IMG/VR virus record: IMGVR_UViG_2541047917_000011
Direction: 5' to 3' (one strand)
Origin: a virus
Taxonomy: Duplodnaviria > Heunggongvirae > Uroviricota > Caudoviricetes
DNA: 39,086 bases
Below are positions 4,450-39,086 of the stretch, one piece after another (position 1 is the stretch's first letter; each line of letters starts with the position of its first letter). The notes beneath the pieces were generated by a model. It was not told the DNA's origin. It searched no databases and worked only from the letters and a program-made list of their open reading frames with translations. The translations under genes and the position numbers were made by a program.

Positions 4450-5330
4450 ACACTCCTCGTCAGTATTCTGGCGGCCATTGCACTTAATCCCGGAGACATG
4501 CGGTTGAATGCTGTGCCGGCGGCGTTAAGCTGCCCGGAAACGGTATCCAGAGCACCTGCAATATTTCTTTTGTCCACACCACTCAGCGCAGACTGTGCCT
4601 GCTGTACATACGTGGCTGCTTCGCTGGCTGTTCTGGCCAGACTGATGGCATCGGGCATGGATTCAGAGAGTGCGTTAAACGCCGGAACACTTTTCCCCAG
4701 AGCCCCGGAGATATTACCCAGTCCGCTCATCAGCCCCGGCACACGGGTCAGTGCGACAACGGGGTTATCCTTCATTTTCTGTGTCACCCGAACGGCGCTG
4801 ATAGTGGTCTGGAGTACAGACTGCGCCTGTTTCGCATAGTTGACGCCGTTGCGGATGAACTGCGCCACCCCTGAAGGTGAAGGAATGGCACCGGAGACCG
4901 CCCCGACACCCGGGAGCTTCGTGCGTATTGCCGGTGGTTGCAGAGGATTTTTCGGATCACCGGTGTATTCCCGGAGAGACACGGTGGCACTGACAGCCAG
5001 CACGTTACCGGTGCTGTCTGTCTGCTCGCTGGTTGCGGTCACATCGGTAATCACGAACCAGCCACGATAGTCACCGTTGCCGAAGACCAGCGCCAGTGCC
5101 TGATGGGCTTTCATGGCTGTTCGCAGTCTCGCCAGCTCCACATCGGGTACACAATAATGCTGATGGAAAACCAGAGTTATCTGGATTTCGTCCAGCCTGT
5201 CGCCGACGAACTGCAGGCCAGGCTTACCCCCGATGCGGGCATGCTCCGCATAATCGACGCCGAACGTGGCCTCGAAGCCGTCCCAGTAGGTAATCAGCTC
5301 AAACTCAATATCACCCAGTACGGCAAACAT
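4446..5330 (-). CDS. Tail protein, GpU / DNA-circularisation N-terminal domain family (Mu N-like)
   Basis: 294 aa directly downstream of the tape measure gene (stop/start overlap at 5330). Confidence 0.6.
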   Translation of the reverse strand: MFAVLGDIEFELITYWDGFEATFGVDYAEHARIGGKPGLQFVGDRLDEIQITLVFHQHYCVPDVELARLRTAMKAHQALALVFGNGDYRGWFVITDVTATSEQTDSTGNVLAVSATVSLREYTGDPKNPLQPPAIRTKLPGVGAVSGAIPSPSGVAQFIRNGVNYAKQAQSVLQTTISAVRVTQKMKDNPVVALTRVPGLMSGLGNISGALGKSVPAFNALSESMPDAISLARTASEAATYVQQAQSALSGVDKRNIAGALDTVSGQLNAAGTAFNRMSPGLSAMAARILTRSV

Positions 5331-8281
5331 CAGCGGTACTCCTTACGTTGTTTCTGAGCCAGCAGACGCTCCAGCATTTTTTCCAGCTCATGCAGGCTCA
5401 TATTCAGGGCGCCAGTCAGTCCGGCAGGCGCTGTGGTTTCCCTGCCATTGAGGAAAAACTGAGGATTAAAGCTGACCTGGATACCACCAGACGTTCCACC
5501 GCCGGTTGCAGCTGCACCACGGCCTGAATATCCGGCAGCCAGGATTTCAGGCGAGGGGATACGGGGAACATCCGGTGTCATCTCATTTGCCAGACGTTGC
5601 CCTGGTAAAATCGATGCCCGGGTGGAGAGCGGAATAGCGGGCATGGAAGACAAACTATTGATTACGGCTCCGATCGCATTTTTAGCAGACGACATAAACC
5701 CATTGATATCGGGCAACGGCATACTGAAGCGAACACCTGAAGTGTTATCCCGTATTTCTGGCCCCTGAATGCTCACGGGCATTTTGGGGAGCAGTTCACT
5801 GGCCATTCGCTGCCCGGCCAGAGCTGCAAGCGGAGTGGTCCGCTGCAGGCCAATGGCGGCCCCCTGCGCGATATTGTCACCAAAGCCCATAAACACGCGG
5901 CTCGGCGAATGAATGCCCAGCTTTTCGCTGAACCAGCCACTGATGCTGTCACCCATTCCGGTTACACTGGATTTGAGCGACTCCCATTTGTTTTTGATAC
6001 CGTTAATCAGACCGTCGACAAGATGGCCACCGAAGTCGGTGAACTTTGCCGGCAGATCAACACCAAGATATTTCAGCGCAGCTGCAAAGGCTTTATAGAG
6101 CAGACCTGCCGGCGACCAGTTAATCAGCAGCTTACCAGTTCCCGCGATACCGCCGTTAAAGGCTTCCTGAATGTCAGCCCAGCACTGTTTAAACCAGCTA
6201 CTGATGCTGTCACCCATTCCGGTTACACTGGATTTGAGCGACCCCCATTTGTTTTTGATACCGTTAATCAGACCGTCGATAAGATGGCCACCGAAGTCGG
6301 TGAACTTTGCCGGCAGAGCAACGCCGAAATATTTCAGCGCAGCCGCAAAGGCTTTATAGAGCAGGCCTGCCGGCGACCAGTTAATCAGCAACTTACCAAT
6401 TCCCACAATGCCGCCGTTAAAGGCTTCCTGAATGTCTGCCCAGCGCTGTTTAAACCAGCCACTGACTGCCCCCCAGTTGCGGTAGATAAGGTAAGCTGCT
6501 GCCGCGACAGCGGTGATAACGAGACCGATGGGATTCATCATCAGCGCACGTCCAATCCAGAGAACAGCACGTCCGGCGAGCATAATTCCGCGAACCAGCC
6601 CCCCGGAGAGCACGCCACTCAGTGTTCTGGCTCCTTTGGCGACGGCGCTAAATCCGGTCACCAGCCAGCGGAGCTTACCGCCTTGCCCCAGTGCGAGCGA
6701 CAGACGAAGCCAGTTGGCCCGAAGTAAAACAGCATTTTTCCAGACACTTACAAAGGGGGAAATAAGGAGATTCAGCCCCAGTTTGAGACCAACAGTCGCT
6801 ATCTTAATCGCAAGGAGCGCACTGATGAGCTTAAAAGCCCCACTGACAAATTGCGGGTGAGTCGCTACCCAGTGTTTTGCCCCCTGAATGAGTGGAAGCA
6901 GTTCCTGAGTCAGAGAAATAAAAGATGGAGCTAATTGATCGCCCAGCGTAATTGCCAGATCACGACTGCTGACCATAAGTGCTTTAGTGGCTTCAAGGGG
7001 AGATTTCAGCCGCTGATCATAAGCACTGGCAAGCAAATCGTTATCCGCAGCCCTGAGAGCACCGGCACGGATCTCTCGATATCTGTCCATGTTGGCCAGC
7101 ATCGGGCGGATAAATGCCATGACCTGCATATCCGCGAACATATCGCCCAGACCAAAGTTTTTCGCCAGAGCCTGAAGTGCCTCATCTCTTGCCGTATCAT
7201 TCTTTATTTTCATGGCTGATTTGAAGCCGGCCAGCGCTTCGGGGCTTTTGGCATTGAGGTAACGTTCTATAACACTCAACATCCCTTCAATCGGAGAGAT
7301 CCCCGCAGCTTTATAACTCGCAATAGATCCCTGCAAATCAATACCCAGATCAGCAAACTGTTTCTGAGTATCGCGGGCAAAAATTTTGGTAAGAAAGTTT
7401 TTAAAATTATTGGCTGCTTCGTCGGTGGAACCTGCACCGATTTTTGCTATCTGGAGACTGGCCCCGATTTCAGCAACAGCCTCTTTTCCACTGGCAATAC
7501 CCGCCATCATTGGGGCCAGGGACTGCATCCACTTGACCTGATCCGGGATTTCAAATGACCCCTGGTCACCGGCATAAGCCATAATATTCTGAACGGCACC
7601 AAAATCTCTGGCCGCACCTTTCAGGGAGTTTTGCCAGACTGCGGCCACTTTTGCCCAGTCCTGAGCAGACGTGCGTGTTGCCGTTGCCGCGCGGGCAATA
7701 TCCGGCATCAGAAAACCGATATCTGACACATTATCAATATTGTCGCTGATGAGTGAACCCACCGCCTCCTGCAGCTCATCCTGATACTGATTGTATTTAA
7801 GCGCCCAGCCTTTTATCTGTCCGGCAAGTGCATCCCGCGTTTTATTGTCATATTTTGCGGTGATCGACATATCAATCATTTTGTCCTGAAAAGACATGGA
7901 CTGCTGAACGGCAGGGGAAACCGTATGATAAACAGTCTGTGCCATGCCATACGCTTCAATCCCCTGACCATACAGCGCCATGCGGTTAGCTTTCAGCGCA
8001 TCACTGGTAGCGGATGCCGCTGACAGACGGCGCTGCTGGCGCTCAATTTGCTCCATGGTGCGGCTTACCCGCAGCAGCTCGCTGTTGAGATGCTGCATCC
8101 GGGAAGAACCCAGTTGACCATAACGTTCTGTTGCACGGGTTAAAGCGTTCTGACGTTCCTGCAGGCGGCGTGAGGTATCGCTCAGGGAATCAAGCGCACG
8201 GCGGGTACCGCTCATTGCAGAACGGAATGTGCTACCAATCATCCCGCCGATAACAACGCCGACTGAAAACTGTCCCGACAT
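5330..8281 (-). CDS. Tail tape measure protein
   Basis: 983 aa, coiled-coil N-terminal half, Gly/Ala-rich hydrophobic segments, internal tandem repeat; located between chaperone and U/X/D genes. Confidence 0.85.
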   Translation of the reverse strand: MSGQFSVGVVIGGMIGSTFRSAMSGTRRALDSLSDTSRRLQERQNALTRATERYGQLGSSRMQHLNSELLRVSRTMEQIERQQRRLSAASATSDALKANRMALYGQGIEAYGMAQTVYHTVSPAVQQSMSFQDKMIDMSITAKYDNKTRDALAGQIKGWALKYNQYQDELQEAVGSLISDNIDNVSDIGFLMPDIARAATATRTSAQDWAKVAAVWQNSLKGAARDFGAVQNIMAYAGDQGSFEIPDQVKWMQSLAPMMAGIASGKEAVAEIGASLQIAKIGAGSTDEAANNFKNFLTKIFARDTQKQFADLGIDLQGSIASYKAAGISPIEGMLSVIERYLNAKSPEALAGFKSAMKIKNDTARDEALQALAKNFGLGDMFADMQVMAFIRPMLANMDRYREIRAGALRAADNDLLASAYDQRLKSPLEATKALMVSSRDLAITLGDQLAPSFISLTQELLPLIQGAKHWVATHPQFVSGAFKLISALLAIKIATVGLKLGLNLLISPFVSVWKNAVLLRANWLRLSLALGQGGKLRWLVTGFSAVAKGARTLSGVLSGGLVRGIMLAGRAVLWIGRALMMNPIGLVITAVAAAAYLIYRNWGAVSGWFKQRWADIQEAFNGGIVGIGKLLINWSPAGLLYKAFAAALKYFGVALPAKFTDFGGHLIDGLINGIKNKWGSLKSSVTGMGDSISSWFKQCWADIQEAFNGGIAGTGKLLINWSPAGLLYKAFAAALKYLGVDLPAKFTDFGGHLVDGLINGIKNKWESLKSSVTGMGDSISGWFSEKLGIHSPSRVFMGFGDNIAQGAAIGLQRTTPLAALAGQRMASELLPKMPVSIQGPEIRDNTSGVRFSMPLPDINGFMSSAKNAIGAVINSLSSMPAIPLSTRASILPGQRLANEMTPDVPRIPSPEILAAGYSGRGAAATGGGTSGGIQVSFNPQFFLNGRETTAPAGLTGALNMSLHELEKMLERLLAQKQRKEYR
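5921..6465. repeat. Tandem duplication (period 261 bp, about 2.1 copies, ~90% identical) inside the tape measure gene
   Basis: Motif AACCAGC(C/T)ACTGA recurs at 5931, 6192 and 6453; encodes repeated ~87-aa unit WFKQ.WADIQEAFNGGI... Confidence 0.85.
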
Positions 8282-33267: not shown

Positions 33268-33324
<57 letters not shown>

Positions 33325-33325
33325 A

Positions 33326-33705
<380 letters not shown>

Positions 33706-33893
33706 AAGTCGTTCCCTCAGGAAGAAGTGATGAGTGACATTTTTCACAGCATCCAAACAATTCTATTTCATCGTTAGCCCTTGTCCTGTAAGGCAATTGC
33801 CTTAACACGCCCGCTATTCATCCTGCCGAACGTAACCGAACGCGCCGGATACATGAGCGGGGTTATCGAGTCGTTAGATCGAGGTATCCGGTT

Positions 33894-35099
33894 TTGAGCA
33901 AGACACCACTGACAGCAAAGGCCATAGACGCCGCACAACCAAAGGACAAGCAATACAAACTCACCGATTCACTGACGCCCGGCCTGTTTTTGCTGGTGCA
34001 TCCCAACGGATCAAAGTATTGGCGATTCAGGTTCTGGATGGACAAAAAAGAGTATTTGCAGGCTATTGGAGTGTACCCGCTAATCAGCCTCAAGGAAGCC
34101 CGTAAACGCGCTACAGAGAGCCGATCTCTGATTGCTAATGGAATTAATCCAGTGGAAGAAGCACGCAAGGAAAAAGCCATTGATGCGCTCAACATGGCGG
34201 CAGGTTTTAAGACGGTAGCGGAGGACTGGCTGGCTACCAGGGTCAGCGGGTGGTCAGAGTCCTACACGAAACAGGTTAGATCGGCACTGGAAAAAGATGT
34301 TTACCCCGTGCTGGGGAAGCGGTCAATTGTCGATATAACGGCCCGTGACGTGCTGGCATTGCTTCAGAAGAAAGAGCGTACCGCACCGGAACAAGCCAGG
34401 AAGCTACGCCAGCGTATCGGGGAGATCTTCAAATTTGCCGTTATCACCGAACTGGTTAACCGAAATCCGGTTGCAGATCTGGACTCGGCCCTGAAAGCCC
34501 GCCGACCAGGTCACAATGCATGGCTGCAAATTAGTGAAATTCCGCCCTTCTACAAAGCCCTTGAGAGAGCCGGGAGCGTTCAGATTCAGACGGCAATACG
34601 TTTGCTTATATTAACGGCATTAAGGACCGCAGAACTGCGTTTAATGCGCTGGGAATGGGTAGATCTGGAGTCAGCAACAATCACCCTACCCGCTGAAGTC
34701 ATGAAGGCCCGCCGACCGCACGTAGTCCCGTTATCCCGGCAGGCGGTCGAGCTATTACAGGACCAGTTTACCCGCAGCGGATACAGTGCTTTCGTCTTTC
34801 CGGGTCGATTCATGGATAAGCCATTGTCAGCCAGTGCGATACTGAAGGCGCTTGAGAGGATCGGCTATAAAGCCCTTGTCACTGGTCACGGATGGCGCAC
34901 AACATTCAGCACCGCACTTAACGAGTCCGGCAGGTACTCACCAGACTGGATCGAGATACAACTGGCCCACGTTCCAAAGGGAATCAGGGGAGTTTACAAT
35001 CAGGCGGCCTACCTGAAGCAACGACGAGCAATGATGCAATCGTACGCGGACGCCATTGATTCAATACTGGCTGGTGACGGCAATCCGCTGGAACCGTGA
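33894..35099 (+). CDS. intZ: Tyrosine site-specific integrase, P4 family
   Basis: 401 aa; N-terminal DUF4102-like arm domain, C-terminal HxxR and catalytic Tyr; TTG start; symbol assigned from genomic context, not from a search. Confidence 0.85.
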   Translation: MSKTPLTAKAIDAAQPKDKQYKLTDSLTPGLFLLVHPNGSKYWRFRFWMDKKEYLQAIGVYPLISLKEARKRATESRSLIANGINPVEEARKEKAIDALNMAAGFKTVAEDWLATRVSGWSESYTKQVRSALEKDVYPVLGKRSIVDITARDVLALLQKKERTAPEQARKLRQRIGEIFKFAVITELVNRNPVADLDSALKARRPGHNAWLQISEIPPFYKALERAGSVQIQTAIRLLILTALRTAELRLMRWEWVDLESATITLPAEVMKARRPHVVPLSRQAVELLQDQFTRSGYSAFVFPGRFMDKPLSASAILKALERIGYKALVTGHGWRTTFSTALNESGRYSPDWIEIQLAHVPKGIRGVYNQAAYLKQRRAMMQSYADAIDSILAGDGNPLEP

Positions 35100-35345
35100 A
35101 CTATAAGGCCGGATTCGTCCGGCTTTTCTTTCGCCTTACTGGTATAAAAGGTTAACAGGTTACACAACCTATCACTATTTTATCCTGTTATCCTTTTATA
35201 CAGCTATACCAATAAAATCAATGATTAAGCCAAGTTTGTAATAAAAAATCCGGGGATCGAAAATAGGATCAACGCAACAAAAAGCCCGGAAGGCCGCTAA
35301 CCAATCCGGGCGATATGGGAAACAAGTAAAAAGGAGAAATCCCAC

Positions 35346-36119
35346 ATGAATATTTTACCAACCGCCTACGCCCCACGGCAAGGCGAATCACTCGGTAAAC
35401 ACAGCCTTCAGAAAATCGACGCGATCCCGGAAGAAGTACGGAGCGCCATTGATGATGGCCTGAATGATATCCGCTTTAATGGTTATCGCTGGGAATGCAA
35501 CGCCAAAACAGGCTGGGCGCGTGTATCACCGATTTCATCACCTGCCGATGCAGAACCTGAATCACCAGAACAAAGCCAGGCAAACGCCCGCGCTGACTTC
35601 CTGGCGTTACAAGGTGAGTATTTATCAGTCACGCAGGAAACTAAAAGCGAGAAGAAATCAGCTACTGATATCGTGAACGAGCTACGCAGTAAGGCCGCTA
35701 AAACTTCGCAGACAGCACCACAGCAGGAAGCGCCGGAAGAACCGGAACAAGCGGAAGCCATGCAGGATAAAGAGACACAATACCAAACGGAAGAAAAAGG
35801 AATTTATTGCAGCTATGTCTGTTTGGGTGCGGCACGTAAGGCATTTGTCAGAAGTGGTTGCGAGAATAAAGCTAAAGCTACAGCCTGGAGCGTATTATCC
35901 AGCATTGCATCAGCAGCAAGAAAGCAGAATGATGGATCTTATGTATCTGAAGTTTGCCAGGCAAAAATAGCTGATGAATGGGGCATGAATCGCCGCACCG
36001 TAATTCGCCAGATGAAAATCCTGGTTGAGTTAGGACTCATTGAGCCATACGGGGAATATGTTATTGGTCAGCACGCAAGAAAATACAGAATGCTTTTTCA
36101 GGTCGAGAACGCAAGATAA
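35346..36119 (+). CDS. Winged-helix DNA-binding protein, candidate iteron-binding replication initiator
   Basis: 257 aa, acidic linker, C-terminal HTH (IADEWGMNRRTVIRQMKILVELGLIE); four iterons begin 65 bp downstream. Confidence 0.45.
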   Translation: MNILPTAYAPRQGESLGKHSLQKIDAIPEEVRSAIDDGLNDIRFNGYRWECNAKTGWARVSPISSPADAEPESPEQSQANARADFLALQGEYLSVTQETKSEKKSATDIVNELRSKAAKTSQTAPQQEAPEEPEQAEAMQDKETQYQTEEKGIYCSYVCLGAARKAFVRSGCENKAKATAWSVLSSIASAARKQNDGSYVSEVCQAKIADEWGMNRRTVIRQMKILVELGLIEPYGEYVIGQHARKYRMLFQVENAR

Positions 36120-36137
36120 CGACTAAAACGCATCAGT

Positions 36138-36167
36138 GGGTCACCTAAAATTGTGGCCCTTTTTATT
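36138..36167 (+). terminator. Intrinsic terminator after rep-like gene
   Basis: Stem GGGTCAC / GTGGCCC (one G-U pair), 8-nt loop, followed by TTTTTATT. Confidence 0.5.
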
Positions 36168-36183
36168 ACTTAAACCATCAACA

Positions 36184-36293
36184 GACGTGTGACATTTGGG
36201 ACACAGGTACGTGTGACATTTGGGATACAGGTCAGAGGGTGACGTGTGACATTTGGGATACAGGTCAGGCCATGACGTGTGACATTTGGGGCA
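36184..36293. repeat. Four direct iterons ACGTGTGACATTTGGG(A/G)YAC..., spacing 24/33/33 bp
   Basis: Core TGTGACATTTGGG found at 36188, 36212, 36245 and 36278. Confidence 0.8.
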
Positions 36294-37201
36294 CACATAG
36301 TATGAGATCTGTATATTCCTTTTTTCTTTTTAAGAGAAAGTAAGAGGCGCGCATTTTAAATGAACACAAACAAGCAACAAGCCCAGCGGACCTTCGGAAG
36401 ACTTCGAGCAATCGCCAGCTCAAAAGACGGTCTGGCAGTGATGGTTATCATCGACAGCTTTCTGAGCTACCGCACAGACACACAGCAGCAGTAAGCAAAC
36501 CGAATGGAAAGCAAAGCGCAAAAAACTCACTCACTGTAAAGCCGATGGGTTTTATCGCGTATACAGACCAGACAGGAAACAGCAGCAAAGCAGCGTATAG
36601 CCAGGTGCAGACAGTACCATCACACGACGCACAGCAGGCTGAGGTGACCACTCAAGCAAGTTTATCCCCGCCGCCGACCACCGCAAACCATCCTGATAGT
36701 GCCAAATTCGAACGGAGTGCTACCTTAAACGCGATTAACACACATAAGCGCTACACTTGCTTACCTGAAAACTTCACAGCGTCACAGCGCGTTTTAGACA
36801 CGTTAAAATCGATGCGATTTCATTAATTTTTCAGCCATCCAGAAATCGGCTTCATATCAAGCCGATTCATCAGCGCGGCGTCCTGCATTGCAGGTTATCG
36901 AAAGAATCAATAACTTTCGCCAATGGCGAAAGTTAAACAATCAATAAAGTCCAGAGTTGGACTATTCACCCAAATTTGGGGCAATGAAATCACACAGATC
37001 CTGCCAGGCTATTCCATCCACCACACAGAACGCTGAGATCTGATATTACCGCCGCACCATTCCACGCCAGACGAATCAAAACAGGCTTACCCTTCCAAGT
37101 GGATAGCTAAAAATTAAGGCTGTCAGAATGCGTTATATTGCGTTTAAACGGCATCGAATTTTAATGTGCGCAATGGTGCCAGATTACAGGCAAAAAAAAT
37201 C

Positions 37202-37230
37202 CCGCCGGAGAAAGCGGGGAAGTGAAATGA
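37202..37230 (-). terminator. Strong rho-independent terminator on minus strand
   Basis: Minus strand reads CCCGC-tttctccg-GCGGG followed by eight T. Confidence 0.6.
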
Positions 37231-37452
37231 ATCGTTGTAGTTATAGATCACATTTTGAGTAAGGGTAACCAGCCCTTGAGTAATATTATCCCTGCATTAC
37301 GTGAGATGCGCAATTATTTTTTGCTAATTAAAAGTTTTGTAAACATTACAGAATCTCCCCTTTCACTATATGGTAAAAGATGTGAAACAGGGACAGGAGG
37401 AATATAATATTAAGTATCAACAGTAATGTTGGCCTTTAATTTTATTCAGGGC

Positions 37453-37495
37453 GCGGTGAGGGTTTTCTCCATATTTTCCTCACCGCTACTTTTTG
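37453..37495 (+). terminator. Hairpin plus T-tract immediately upstream of alpA RBS
   Basis: Perfect 9-bp stem GCGGTGAGG / CCTCACCGC with 16-nt loop, then TACTTTTT. Confidence 0.45.
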
Positions 37496-37505
37496 AGGTG
37501 AGAAC

Positions 37506-37697
37506 ATGAATGATAGCGAATTAATGACGGTTAACGAGGTAGCAGCTTTATTCGGCGTTACCCGTCGGACAATATTCCGGTGGATGAACAAGATTAAAGG
37601 CTGGCCCGTCCCGGTCAGTCCGATTGGCTCAAGAATTAAGTTTATCCGATCTGAGATTTTGGAATTCTATAAAAACAAAGGCGCTCGCCACCAATGA
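37506..37697 (+). CDS. alpA: AlpA-family phage/island transcriptional regulator (excisionase-like HTH)
   Basis: 63 aa; MTVNEVAALFGVTRRTIFRWM motif typical of AlpA; GAGGTGA RBS. Confidence 0.75.
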   Translation: MNDSELMTVNEVAALFGVTRRTIFRWMNKIKGWPVPVSPIGSRIKFIRSEILEFYKNKGARHQ

Positions 37698-37773
37698 AAA
37701 CAGCTACTGAGATTATCAAATAACCTATTGATTTAAAAAGCTAGCTACCGCAATTTCTGAAGGAATAGGCAGC

Positions 37774-38100
37774 ATGAAAATCAAAGCAAACACAATTAAA
37801 GAAATAACATCAATCAAAATAAAAGGAGCAGATGCCATGCATTCATTAGACAGTTATTTTCAGCGCACGACAGCCCCTAAATCAGCCGCCCAGGAACGCC
37901 GTGAGGAATTCCAGGAAAAAGTGATGCGTTCTGCTGATTATATTGCGGACAAGTTCGTGGAAACGGTTCGGCCACTTGTTGATGAAGTAGCTGATAAACT
38001 TCAGTCTGAAATGCCGGAAGACATGGAAGGCACTGCAAAGGCGCGACTCCTTTTTGAATTAAGTCGTCGTTTCGGCGTGTCAATAAGCACTTTTAAATAA
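37774..38100 (+). CDS. Hypothetical island protein
   Basis: 108 aa ORF, AT-rich. Confidence 0.35.
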   Translation: MKIKANTIKEITSIKIKGADAMHSLDSYFQRTTAPKSAAQERREEFQEKVMRSADYIADKFVETVRPLVDEVADKLQSEMPEDMEGTAKARLLFELSRRFGVSISTFK

Positions 38101-38117
38101 TCGGAGGAGGAAAGACA

Positions 38118-38660
38118 ATGGACGCATTTGATGTACTGACAAACAAAGGCGATGAACTGGTAGCACAGCGTGATAAAACCGCCAACGAAGGGGAACGCGC
38201 ACTGTTAAATAAGCAGATTAAAGCGATCCGTATGGCCCAGTTTAAATTAATCAGCAATGAAGTTATCGAAATAATTAAACCGCAGATCCCACAAATCGTT
38301 GCTGACGCTATTAAAGCCGCCGGACTGGAGAAACGCATTGCCGGGCTGAAAACGAACGCAGAGAAAATGGAGATGCACAAACAGAGCGGTGCTCCGACTA
38401 CGGATGAGTACTTCTCACCGGATGCTGAGTTTATGGCGCAGGTTGAGGAACGTCTGGGTAGCTGTCTCACCGAGGAACAGCGTCGCTATTTTGATGGAGT
38501 GGATAGTTCGGCAGGTATTGACCTGAACTCGTATTTCGGTCGTGAAATTGAGCATTTTGATGCCGCCCCGTCTATGCCGGAGCCAGAACCAGAAATGGCC
38601 GCCGATCCTGAAGCTGAGCAACGGAAACGCGTATTCAATGCGATAGGGATTCGGTACTGA
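38118..38660 (+). CDS. Hypothetical island protein (acidic, coiled-coil)
   Basis: 180 aa ORF with GGAGGA RBS. Confidence 0.45.
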   Translation: MDAFDVLTNKGDELVAQRDKTANEGERALLNKQIKAIRMAQFKLISNEVIEIIKPQIPQIVADAIKAAGLEKRIAGLKTNAEKMEMHKQSGAPTTDEYFSPDAEFMAQVEERLGSCLTEEQRRYFDGVDSSAGIDLNSYFGREIEHFDAAPSMPEPEPEMAADPEAEQRKRVFNAIGIRY

Positions 38661-38711
38661 TCGGATAAAAGAAAGCCGGGAATTACCCCGGCTGACTTAA
38701 CAATGTGACCA

Positions 38712-39086
38712 ATGAACAAATCGGACAAGACAAACAGGATAAGCAGTCTCGAAACAATGTTCGGGAACTATATTAGCACAAGTCCGGAGAAAATCATCAT
38801 GTTGGCACTACGCATCATGCAGGGCATCGCTAAGACCCTCGCAGAACATGTCTTAGACCTGAAACATTCGCCACTGAGCAAACAGGCCATGAAGCGCCAA
38901 ACGCTTCGTCTGTGGGCTGAATATTCGCTTGGAACTATCAATAAAATCATCGATATGAAATCGGGGCCGAGCAACCAGAGCGCGGAGGAAATGGAGTTCA
39001 TCAGGCGTTTAATTCTCATTCGCAGAGACATTCATAGCCAGTTACACAGCGTGGGAATCGATATTAATGATGGGACGGGCGATTAA
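38712..39086 (+). CDS. Hypothetical island protein
   Basis: 124 aa ORF ending with TAA at the window end. Confidence 0.4.
   Translation: MNKSDKTNRISSLETMFGNYISTSPEKIIMLALRIMQGIAKTLAEHVLDLKHSPLSKQAMKRQTLRLWAEYSLGTINKIIDMKSGPSNQSAEEMEFIRRLILIRRDIHSQLHSVGIDINDGTGD

Follow-up and report, generated by a model that had tools for sequence, protein, structure and literature searches.

The stretch of DNA considered here (the window) is 39,086 nucleotides long and is held as the virus record IMGVR_UViG_2541047917_000011 in IMG/VR. The subject of this report is a gene at positions 35346–36119 (plus strand), which encodes a putative replication initiator of the YffL family, together with the non-coding DNA that directly follows it. 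The open reading frame (ORF) specifies 257 amino acids (aa) and starts with an ATG that has a good Shine–Dalgarno sequence, AGGAG, upstream. The stop codon is followed by an intrinsic terminator on the same strand (36138–36164), made up of the hairpin GGGTCAC-N8-GTGGCCC (7-bp stem, 8-nt loop) and a T run, and then by a degenerate remnant (36175–36183, plus strand) at the place where several relatives have a DnaA box; its sequence, CCATCAACA, has three mismatches to TTATCCACA. Next come four direct repeats (iterons) on the plus strand, at 36185–36208 (ACGTGTGACATTTGGGACACAGGT), 36209–36232, 36242–36265 and 36275–36298, the first of them 66 bp 3′ of the stop codon. They are spaced 24/33/33 and have the core GTGTGACATTTGGGAYACAGG; copies 1–3 are almost perfect, the 3′ half of the fourth has diverged (GGGGCACACAT, three mismatches), and each copy has partial internal dyad symmetry. 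With up to three mismatches allowed, the core occurs at only these four sites in the window, and none of 100 shuffles produced a match. An AT-rich stretch (36299–36360) adjoins the array on its 3′ side; its guanine-plus-cytosine (GC) fraction is 0.32, compared with about 0.46 locally, and it contains GATC and short TAAGAG repeats and is a candidate unwinding region. Thus, the winged-helix gene, the terminator and the four 24-bp repeats at 24/33/33 spacing that had been described in an initial annotation of this DNA all lie where they had been placed.

The gene can be divided into a constant part encoding the N-terminal region (about 35346–35767) and a variable part encoding a C-terminal winged-helix DNA-binding domain (about 35790–36119). 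This one winged helix is the sole recognisable domain of the protein. In an AlphaFold2 model it spans residues of about 150–250 and is predicted confidently (predicted local distance difference test score 85–91), while the other residues, of low confidence, include a small β domain at 20–62 (moderate confidence) and an acidic, disordered middle region. The protein scores 24.0 bits against the Pfam family HTH_36 (PF13730), for which the gathering threshold is 25 bits, and residues 183–238 are also matched by HTH_Crp_2, HTH_5 and HTH_24. The HTH_36 threshold is passed by the relatives P0031 (39.4 bits), P0040 (36.0), P0026 (28.6) and P0010 (25.2), and, judged by profile scores, membership of HTH_36 holds at the level of the initiator family. 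There is no Pfam match to Rep_3 (E ≤ 1), RepA_N (PF06970), RepA_C or PriCT in the 257-aa protein, and the AlphaFold2 model, with its one winged helix, does not contain a tandem WH1–WH2 pair, so that the protein is not an initiator of the RepA/PriCT type, against which the initial annotation had suggested a search. The protein itself is without helicase or primase activity. PHROG profiles for replication initiators, O-like or DnaD-like, are matched by 15–17 of 19 family members (best E 6e-10), and the O-like families 391, 678 and 345 by 14–15 of the 19 (best E 1e-7); the matches of the window protein itself to O-like profiles are weak (E 8e-4 to 0.02). These profile matches identify the winged helix as a homologue of the one in phage initiators.

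The close homologues of the 257-aa protein are all from E. coli. Searches of phage sequences by tblastn with the window protein, YffL and P0031 gave no match, and no family member was found in IMG/VR or the phage collection, nor did relatives emerge when IMG/VR and a set with one genome per species were scanned for motifs. Among plasmids, the same tblastn queries matched only 8-kb episomes, described below, and one YffL copy in a record of a 111-kb conjugative plasmid of Klebsiella pneumoniae (NZ_KY751926.1, 87969–88607), which is 100% identical to K-12 yffL and is probably captured or mis-assembled K-12 chromosomal DNA. The family alignment opens at the N-terminus with the conserved peptide MNILPTAYAxRQGE, after which an insert of about 80 aa may or may not be present; then follow a conserved helix (KSEKKSAxDIVNELRSKAAAK), a linker that is acidic (PQQEAPEEPE) and, at the C-terminus, the winged helix, which exists in several quite different versions.

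Comparison of the window with its relatives by blastn revealed a sharp boundary in the DNA: 35210–35767 and 36388–36831 are conserved, and the cassette between them (about 35767–36388), which holds the DNA-binding domain, the terminator, the repeats and the AT-rich DNA, has been swapped as one block. The layout of the module, i.e., gene, terminator, two to seven repeats of 18–24 bp and AT-rich DNA, is kept in the types A, A2, B, C and D described below, in K-12 yffL and in the episomes. A hairpin followed by a T run is present at the equivalent place in every variant, and the AT-rich DNA that follows the repeats in the other variants has a GC fraction of 0.30–0.33 and often contains tandem repeats of 11–14 bp, the exception being K-12 (0.45). 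The absence of the repeats from homologous islands had been named in advance as an observation that would speak against an origin; every relative examined has an array behind the gene.

Every type of DNA-binding domain is accompanied by a different repeat array, which occupies the corresponding position. Type A (the window and P0004) has four copies of GTGTGACATTTGGGAYACAGG at 24/33/33 spacing; type A2 (P0006) has five copies of ACCCCTGACACCAGAAACAGGGGT with the same 24/33/33 core geometry; type B (P0010) has five to seven copies of AACTCGTTATCATTCTGAGCACG at spacings of 40 and 22; type C (P0031) has three copies of the 23-bp repeat CCCCCACCAAATTTGGGCTAC; and type D (P0026) has two copies of AGACCCCCACCAAAAATTGGCTAC. 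The copy number is polymorphic, since ETEC1731 (L036 3428–3582) and the A2 loci (L016, L017) have a fifth, upstream copy, set apart by a 20-bp AT-rich spacer, which gives an array spacing of 44/24/33/33. P0004 and P0006 are each other's closest relatives, with nearly identical terminators, flanks and repeat spacing. P0004 shares the recognition helix RRTVIRQM and the repeats with the window, whereas P0006 has the recognition helix SRTVSRQT and the new repeat ACCCCTGACACCAGAAACAGGGGT, in which the same positions are altered in all copies. In addition, there is a natural chimera, P0009, in which a type C domain is combined with an N-terminus of the window type and the repeats are those of type C; thus, the repeats follow the C-terminal domain rather than the N-terminus. 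The P0004/P0006 pair and the P0009 chimera are strong indirect evidence, at the level of sequence, and suggest that the winged helix binds the repeats. Many of the repeats are semi-palindromic (ACCCCTG...CAGGGGT, CCAAATTTGG, AACTCGT...ACGAGTT), and therefore binding as a dimer is suggested.

The positional counterpart of the window gene in E. coli K-12 MG1655 is yffL, whose 213-aa product is a distant homologue; in common with the window protein it has the central helix, the linker of acidic residues and a winged helix at the C-terminus. Located 3′ of yffL are a terminator, four direct repeats of 23 bp (GGTGGGTCAAAAGTTGCCGTTA) and a short AT-rich tandem repeat. The repeats begin right after the terminator (L020 4951–5046, equal to NC_000913.3 about 2,560,950–2,561,045) and carry no feature annotation in the RefSeq record. 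No publication was found that assigns a function to yffL, or that describes a replication role for yffL or for CPZ-55, the K-12 element at this site; yffL was still listed as hypothetical in 2025 (PMC12356324).

Relatives of the module are also found on small circular molecules. An 8,009-bp E. coli “plasmid” is present in two strains (NZ_CP062859 and NZ_CP062904; L002/L019), as circular permutations of each other. Besides a homologue that is 43% identical to the window protein over the C-terminal half, it encodes AlpA, a serine recombinase and an XRE-like protein and has a short ORF resembling the Sf6 terminase. The family gene is followed by a terminator, then by TTATCCACA and seven 22-bp repeats, and further on by AT-rich DNA containing GATC, a GC-rich block and TGTGGATAA. 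TTATCCACA and TGTGGATAA are the only two perfect DnaA boxes in the 8,009-bp molecule, and they flank the repeats and the AT-rich DNA. An exhaustive profile search recovered further members, all of them on contigs of 8–11 kb. Two of these (L031, 8,763 bp, and L032, 8,611 bp) come from different samples, have terminal overlaps of 30 and 27 bp and are mutually permuted; in each, the only perfect DnaA box lies 52 bp beyond the stop codon, and behind it come 18-bp repeats, then AT-rich DNA that contains AACTACATA repeats, and a GC-rich block. The layout in the 11,159-bp L034 is the same. A perfect TTATCCACA thus occupies the homologous position in L002, L031/L032 and L034, boxes with one mismatch are found there in L018, L016 and L007, and in the islands the position is degenerate (TTATCAACA, TTATCCATA and the window sequence given above).

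AlpA, the terminase-like ORF and the YffL-family gene are present in all of the episomes (8.0, 8.6–8.8 and 11.2 kb). The serine recombinase is encoded by the 8–9-kb episomes, none being called in the 11.2-kb L034, and an HNH nuclease is found in the L032 and L034 lineages. The 8–9-kb episomes have only the short terminase-like ORF and are without a tape measure, whereas L034 has a small terminase, HNH and a tape-measure-like protein. L002 and L031 each carry a separate repressor-like protein (231 or 270 aa). No replication protein was found among the scanned proteins of L002 or L031 besides the family member, which matches the PHROG “replication initiation O-like” profile at 3.8e-6; the other proteins of L034 were covered by precomputed Pfam hits only. 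The two deposited records are without a replicon type in PLSDB, and the YffL-type episomes appear to be an unclassified replicon group.

Two further observations concern the episomes. L002 has a second repeat system (4690–5590) made of 12-bp GATGTAAC(A/G)G(C/T)C units, five of which lie inside and three just after the gene for the XRE-like protein, with more upstream; these units are probably operators of that regulator. A conserved non-coding stretch, GCAGGAGGGAG.CGGCGCT...GCGGGTATCTCTGTTCGGCCCGGTC, is common to L002 (equal to L019 about 1360–1450), L031 and L034, about 150–300 bp beyond the origin region; the window lacks this stretch, and Rfam gave no match to it.

The conserved anatomy, the co-variation of domain and repeats, the circular episomes with DnaA-box-flanked repeats and the homology of the winged helix to that of phage initiators all point in one direction. 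The gene at 35346–36119 and the repeats behind it probably form an iteron-type initiator/origin module of an uncharacterised initiator family, and 35346–36360 is likely to be the vegetative replication module of an integrative element of the CPZ-55 type, or an inherited copy of one. In such a module, the YffL-family protein would bind the four repeats via its C-terminal winged helix, probably as dimers because the repeats are semi-palindromic; the resulting nucleoprotein array would open the adjoining AT-rich DNA; the constant N-terminal part, with its conserved short motifs and acidic linker, would recruit helicase and primase; and the circle produced by IntZ/AlpA-mediated excision would be amplified. 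The iteron-controlled origin of the initial annotation is therefore upheld as a cognate protein–site module with origin-like anatomy, with the reservation that the DnaA-box position of the window is degenerate. Its idea of an integrative plasmid gains from the existence of related small circular episomes, in which the module is the only replication candidate found.

Several points weigh against an active origin in the window. The HTH_36 score of the window protein itself falls slightly short of the cut-off. There is no match to the DnaA-box consensus TTWTNCACA near the repeats, the homologous position having three mismatches. No iteron pattern (up to three mismatches) that could serve for autoregulation was found upstream of the initiator gene, at the rep promoter. 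The spacer between int and rep does contain a 21-nt inverted repeat (35142–35201; 90% complementary) with promoter-like hexamers (35152–35181), which is not the initiator's own operator, because its presence does not track the iteron type. The N-termini of the episomal and island proteins differ, and for this reason the evidence from the episomes can be carried over in full to the DNA-binding domain and the layout of the origin only. The module may also be vestigial, because the island in the window has lost packaging (terminase), HNH and tape-measure genes and carries cargo (gadC-like, glutamate racemase and IS1) instead. In K-12, CPZ-55 was excised at a frequency below 1e-5 (PMC3105296), and mobilome sequencing yielded no extrachromosomal circular DNA of the element (bioRxiv 10.1101/2024.07.17.603846). 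These published data fit both conditional replication and decay. In the same way, the degenerate DnaA box and the island-type N-terminus may mean that replication of the islands is conditional on another factor or, equally, that the copies are decaying.

The serious alternative to an origin is that the winged-helix protein is an immunity-type master repressor and the repeats are operators that control rightward transcription to alpA, in the manner of lambdoid immunity cassettes. The winged-helix fold is closest to those of transcription factors, semi-palindromic sites at a spacing of 23–24 bp resemble operator arrays, the gene is positioned between int and alpA, and a mosaic cassette between conserved flanks is typical of immunity regions as well. 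However, the array comes after the terminator of the gene itself, no promoter-like site was predicted on it and the next conserved gene is 1.2 kb away, while in the episomes the arrays are flanked by perfect DnaA boxes and by AT-rich DNA with short tandem repeats, which operators do not need. The episomes also encode their separate repressor-like protein, no other replicon candidate was found in them, and the PHROG matches are to initiators rather than repressors. A repressor is for these reasons considered unlikely.

Far less probable is a centromere-like or packaging site, at which the protein would bind the repeats for partition of an excised circle or for marking by terminase (as a pac/cos accessory). 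Arrays of direct repeats bound by small DNA-binding proteins are typical of partition centromeres and of cosB/pac sites, and related elements do encode a small terminase; that terminase, though, is a separate protein of Sf6 type, the island in the window has lost it yet keeps the module, no ParA/ParM-type NTPase was found in any relative, and the DnaA boxes and AT-rich region indicate an origin. The possibility of chance, or of a recent and functionless tandem duplication, has the small size of the array in its favour and nothing more: with 0 matches expected at random, and with at least eight independent sequence types that keep the architecture while the copies change in concert, it is effectively refuted.

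The origin region of the window is followed by a near-invariant non-coding block of about 130 bp (36389–36520; GACCTTCGGAAGACTTCGAGCAATCGCCAGC...CAGCAGCAGTAAGCAAACCGAAGGGAAGGCAAAGC), which always comes after the origin region. The block is kept across all chromosomal iteron types, in K-12 (L020 5318–5380) and in the 11-kb episome L034, and is better conserved than the adjacent coding DNA. A peptide was rejected as its product, as indels break the annotated 44-aa ORF and the frame is not conserved; an RNA was likewise rejected, since the folding z was close to 0 for either strand and Rfam gave nothing significant. The block may belong to the origin, to a packaging site or to a regulatory site.

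The island that carries the module occupies the CPZ-55 site in the E. coli eut operon, where eutB and intZ adjoin. Of 5,426 complete E. coli genomes, 64 contain at least 80% of window positions 33300–39086, at 99.7–99.9% identity; the variable cassette alone (35760–36390) is present in 82 genomes, being chromosomal in all. Between the start of eutB and int is a candidate att core on the attL side (33737–33747, ACATTTTTCAC); in the reference copy L001 (12341 and 22502) this 11-mer is found again at the far end of the island, immediately ahead of eutA. The assignment is tentative because the match is short and attR lies outside the window. Arm sites of the integrase or Xis sites were rejected as the identity of the repeats, which are about 2.4 kb from the candidate core. 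The integrase (33894–35099, plus strand) is an IntZ-type tyrosine recombinase of 401 aa with matches to Arm-DNA-bind_3, Phage_int_M and Phage_integrase (E 1e-22 to 1e-29), and is annotated as intZ in genomes that are 99.9% identical. An AlpA/excisionase-like HTH_17 protein of 63 aa (37506–37697, plus strand; HTH_17 36 bits; PHROG 66 “excisionase and transcriptional regulator” 1.7e-9) is encoded by the gene that opens the rightward operon. Just upstream of alpA, the minus strand of 37190–37345 has a strong terminator-like hairpin (37218–37201, then T8) about 100 nt downstream of a promoter-like site (37343–37316). This region is conserved in relatives and is a candidate for a small divergent or antisense RNA; a weak match to GcvB (E 0.38) is not significant.

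In L001, the island extends for about 10 kb from eutB to eutA and contains intZ, the initiator gene, the AlpA-like gene, a few small ORFs and a decarboxylase pseudogene, with further cargo of a gadC-like antiporter gene, a glutamate racemase gene and IS1. Islands of this window type are without the HNH nuclease, the Sf6-type small terminase and the 730-aa tape-measure homologue of their fuller relatives. The full-length relatives (L018 9743–16360 and its equivalents in L004, L005, L007 and L034) are elements of about 10–12 kb, which encode an HNH nuclease, an Sf6-type small terminase and a tape-measure-like protein of 730–788 aa, besides the integrase and AlpA in the case of the islands. The tape measure is 40–48% identical to those of mEp013 and Salmonella siphoviruses (L018 up to 48% to mEp013). 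The definitions published for P4, phage-inducible chromosomal islands (PICIs), capsid-forming PICIs (cfPICIs) and PICI-like elements (PLEs) do not accommodate an element of satellite size that has a tape measure of its own. The satellite or PICI-like nature put forward in the initial annotation is thus supported by the gene set of the relatives (integrase, AlpA, HNH, small terminase and tape-measure homologue), and its PICI side is weakened in that pri-rep, the gene that defines PICIs, was not found.

To the left of the island lies a transposable prophage of the Mu type, which ends (...TCTAATCA) inside eutB at the junction 33396/33397, cutting the gene after about 103 codons. On the plus strand, about 25.5–33.2 kb is occupied by the early genes of the prophage (transposase, MuB-like, Gam, GemA, Mor); the late genes lie to the left, on the minus strand. 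The Mu/eutB arrangement is also present in one public assembly (GCA_000460835.1; L024), and eutB is intact in nine other places and in all 25 genome matches listed. This prophage had been considered as a possible helper of the island. As the insertion in eutB is specific to the strain, and the tape measures of the island's relatives are of the mEp013/mEp021 type and have no similarity to that of the Mu-like prophage, the prophage is regarded as an unrelated neighbour and the proposal as unsupported.

From these features a wider reading can be tentatively drawn, which as a joint claim is possible and rather less probable than its converse: the YffL initiator with its swappable iteron cassette would be the hallmark of a family of phage satellites in E. 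coli that is as yet undescribed, and CPZ-55 of K-12 would be a remnant of this family. The family would exist in two forms, one integrated at eut with a tyrosine integrase and the other as circular episomes of 8–11 kb; the island-type N-terminus would make replication depend on a siphovirus helper of the mEp013/mEp021 type, and the episome-type N-terminus, together with the DnaA boxes, would allow autonomous maintenance.

The analysis gives a predicted, testable function for an uncharacterised family that includes K-12 yffL, with the four 23-bp repeats of MG1655 as its likely binding sites, and puts forward a replicon type for the small episomes of E. coli left untyped by PLSDB. It also suggests that the eut-site islands are, or descend from, satellite-like replicative elements. 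The natural pairs of domain and repeat, one of which differs by a few recognition-helix residues, are a ready system for studying winged-helix specificity and origin incompatibility.

In comparison with known systems, the module is, as far as sequence can tell, of a known kind, served by an initiator family that is not Rep_3, RepA_N, RepA_C or Pri-Rep and is so far uncharacterised. The repeat number, the spacing of 22–24 and 33 bp and the place directly 3′ of rep are as in the oriV of Salmonella genomic island 1 (SGI1) (PMC7433901) and the origins of PICIs (PMC6092414). Gram-negative PICIs, e.g., EcCICFT073, resemble the island in having int and alpA, unidirectional transcription, a specific integration site and an origin of iterons and AT-rich DNA directly 3′ of the initiator gene (PMC6092414). 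They differ in that the window initiator is upstream rather than downstream of alpA, and in that the full-length relatives have a tape-measure homologue, tail genes being “forbidden” in the SatelliteFinder model of PICIs (PMC10085698). No primase, helicase or PriCT domain of the Pri-Rep kind was found in the window island or the full-length relatives, and PMC6092414 and its accessible supplements make no mention of the eut site or yffL.

SGI1 has, like the window, int, rep (S003), a rho-independent terminator, a four-iteron origin directly downstream and AT-rich DNA (PMC7433901). Its oriV includes a DnaA box, unlike the copy in the window, and replicates only after excision, triggered by a helper (PMC7433901), which is a conjugative plasmid and not a phage. 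The Rep of SGI1 is a plasmid initiator of the RepA_C type, whereas the window protein has a single C-terminal winged helix of the HTH_36 type and no RepA_C match. The RepA of PLEs, satellites of Vibrio cholerae, is a member of the RepA_N family and is likewise an initiator without helicase or primase that is paired with semi-palindromic direct-repeat iterons (PMC7145576). These iterons are often centred on an A tract, as may be compared with CCAAATTTGG of type C, CCAAAAATTGG of type D and GGTCAAAATGACC of L034. PLE RepA depends on functions of the helper phage (PMC7145576), and a dependence of the window element on helper or host would be the counterpart. The window protein differs from PLE RepA in having no RepA_N match and the reverse order of domains, the host is different, and the integrase of the chromosomal islands is of another type.

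Classical iteron plasmids with Rep_3-type initiators (pSC101, R6K, F, RK2) have direct repeats at about 22-bp spacing, an AT-rich region and rep beside the origin, as in the window. Their DnaA boxes are matched in the episomal relatives and not in the window; their initiators are of the WH1–WH2 form, compared with the one winged helix of the window protein, which lacks a Rep_3 match; and inverted half-iterons were not found at the window rep promoter.

The O protein of phage lambda is a winged-helix initiator without enzymatic activity, which binds four semi-palindromic repeats beside AT-rich DNA and recruits the helicase via a second domain. No gene for a P-like helicase loader was found in the window island. 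The arrangement of lambda differs in that gene O itself contains the origin and the binding domain is at the N-terminus of the protein, whereas in the window the domain is C-terminal and the origin comes after the stop codon and terminator. The likeness to lambda O is that relatives vary in the DNA-binding domain and the repeats together, with the other domain unchanged, and the matches of the window family to PHROG “replication initiation O-like” profiles, although weak, are consistent.

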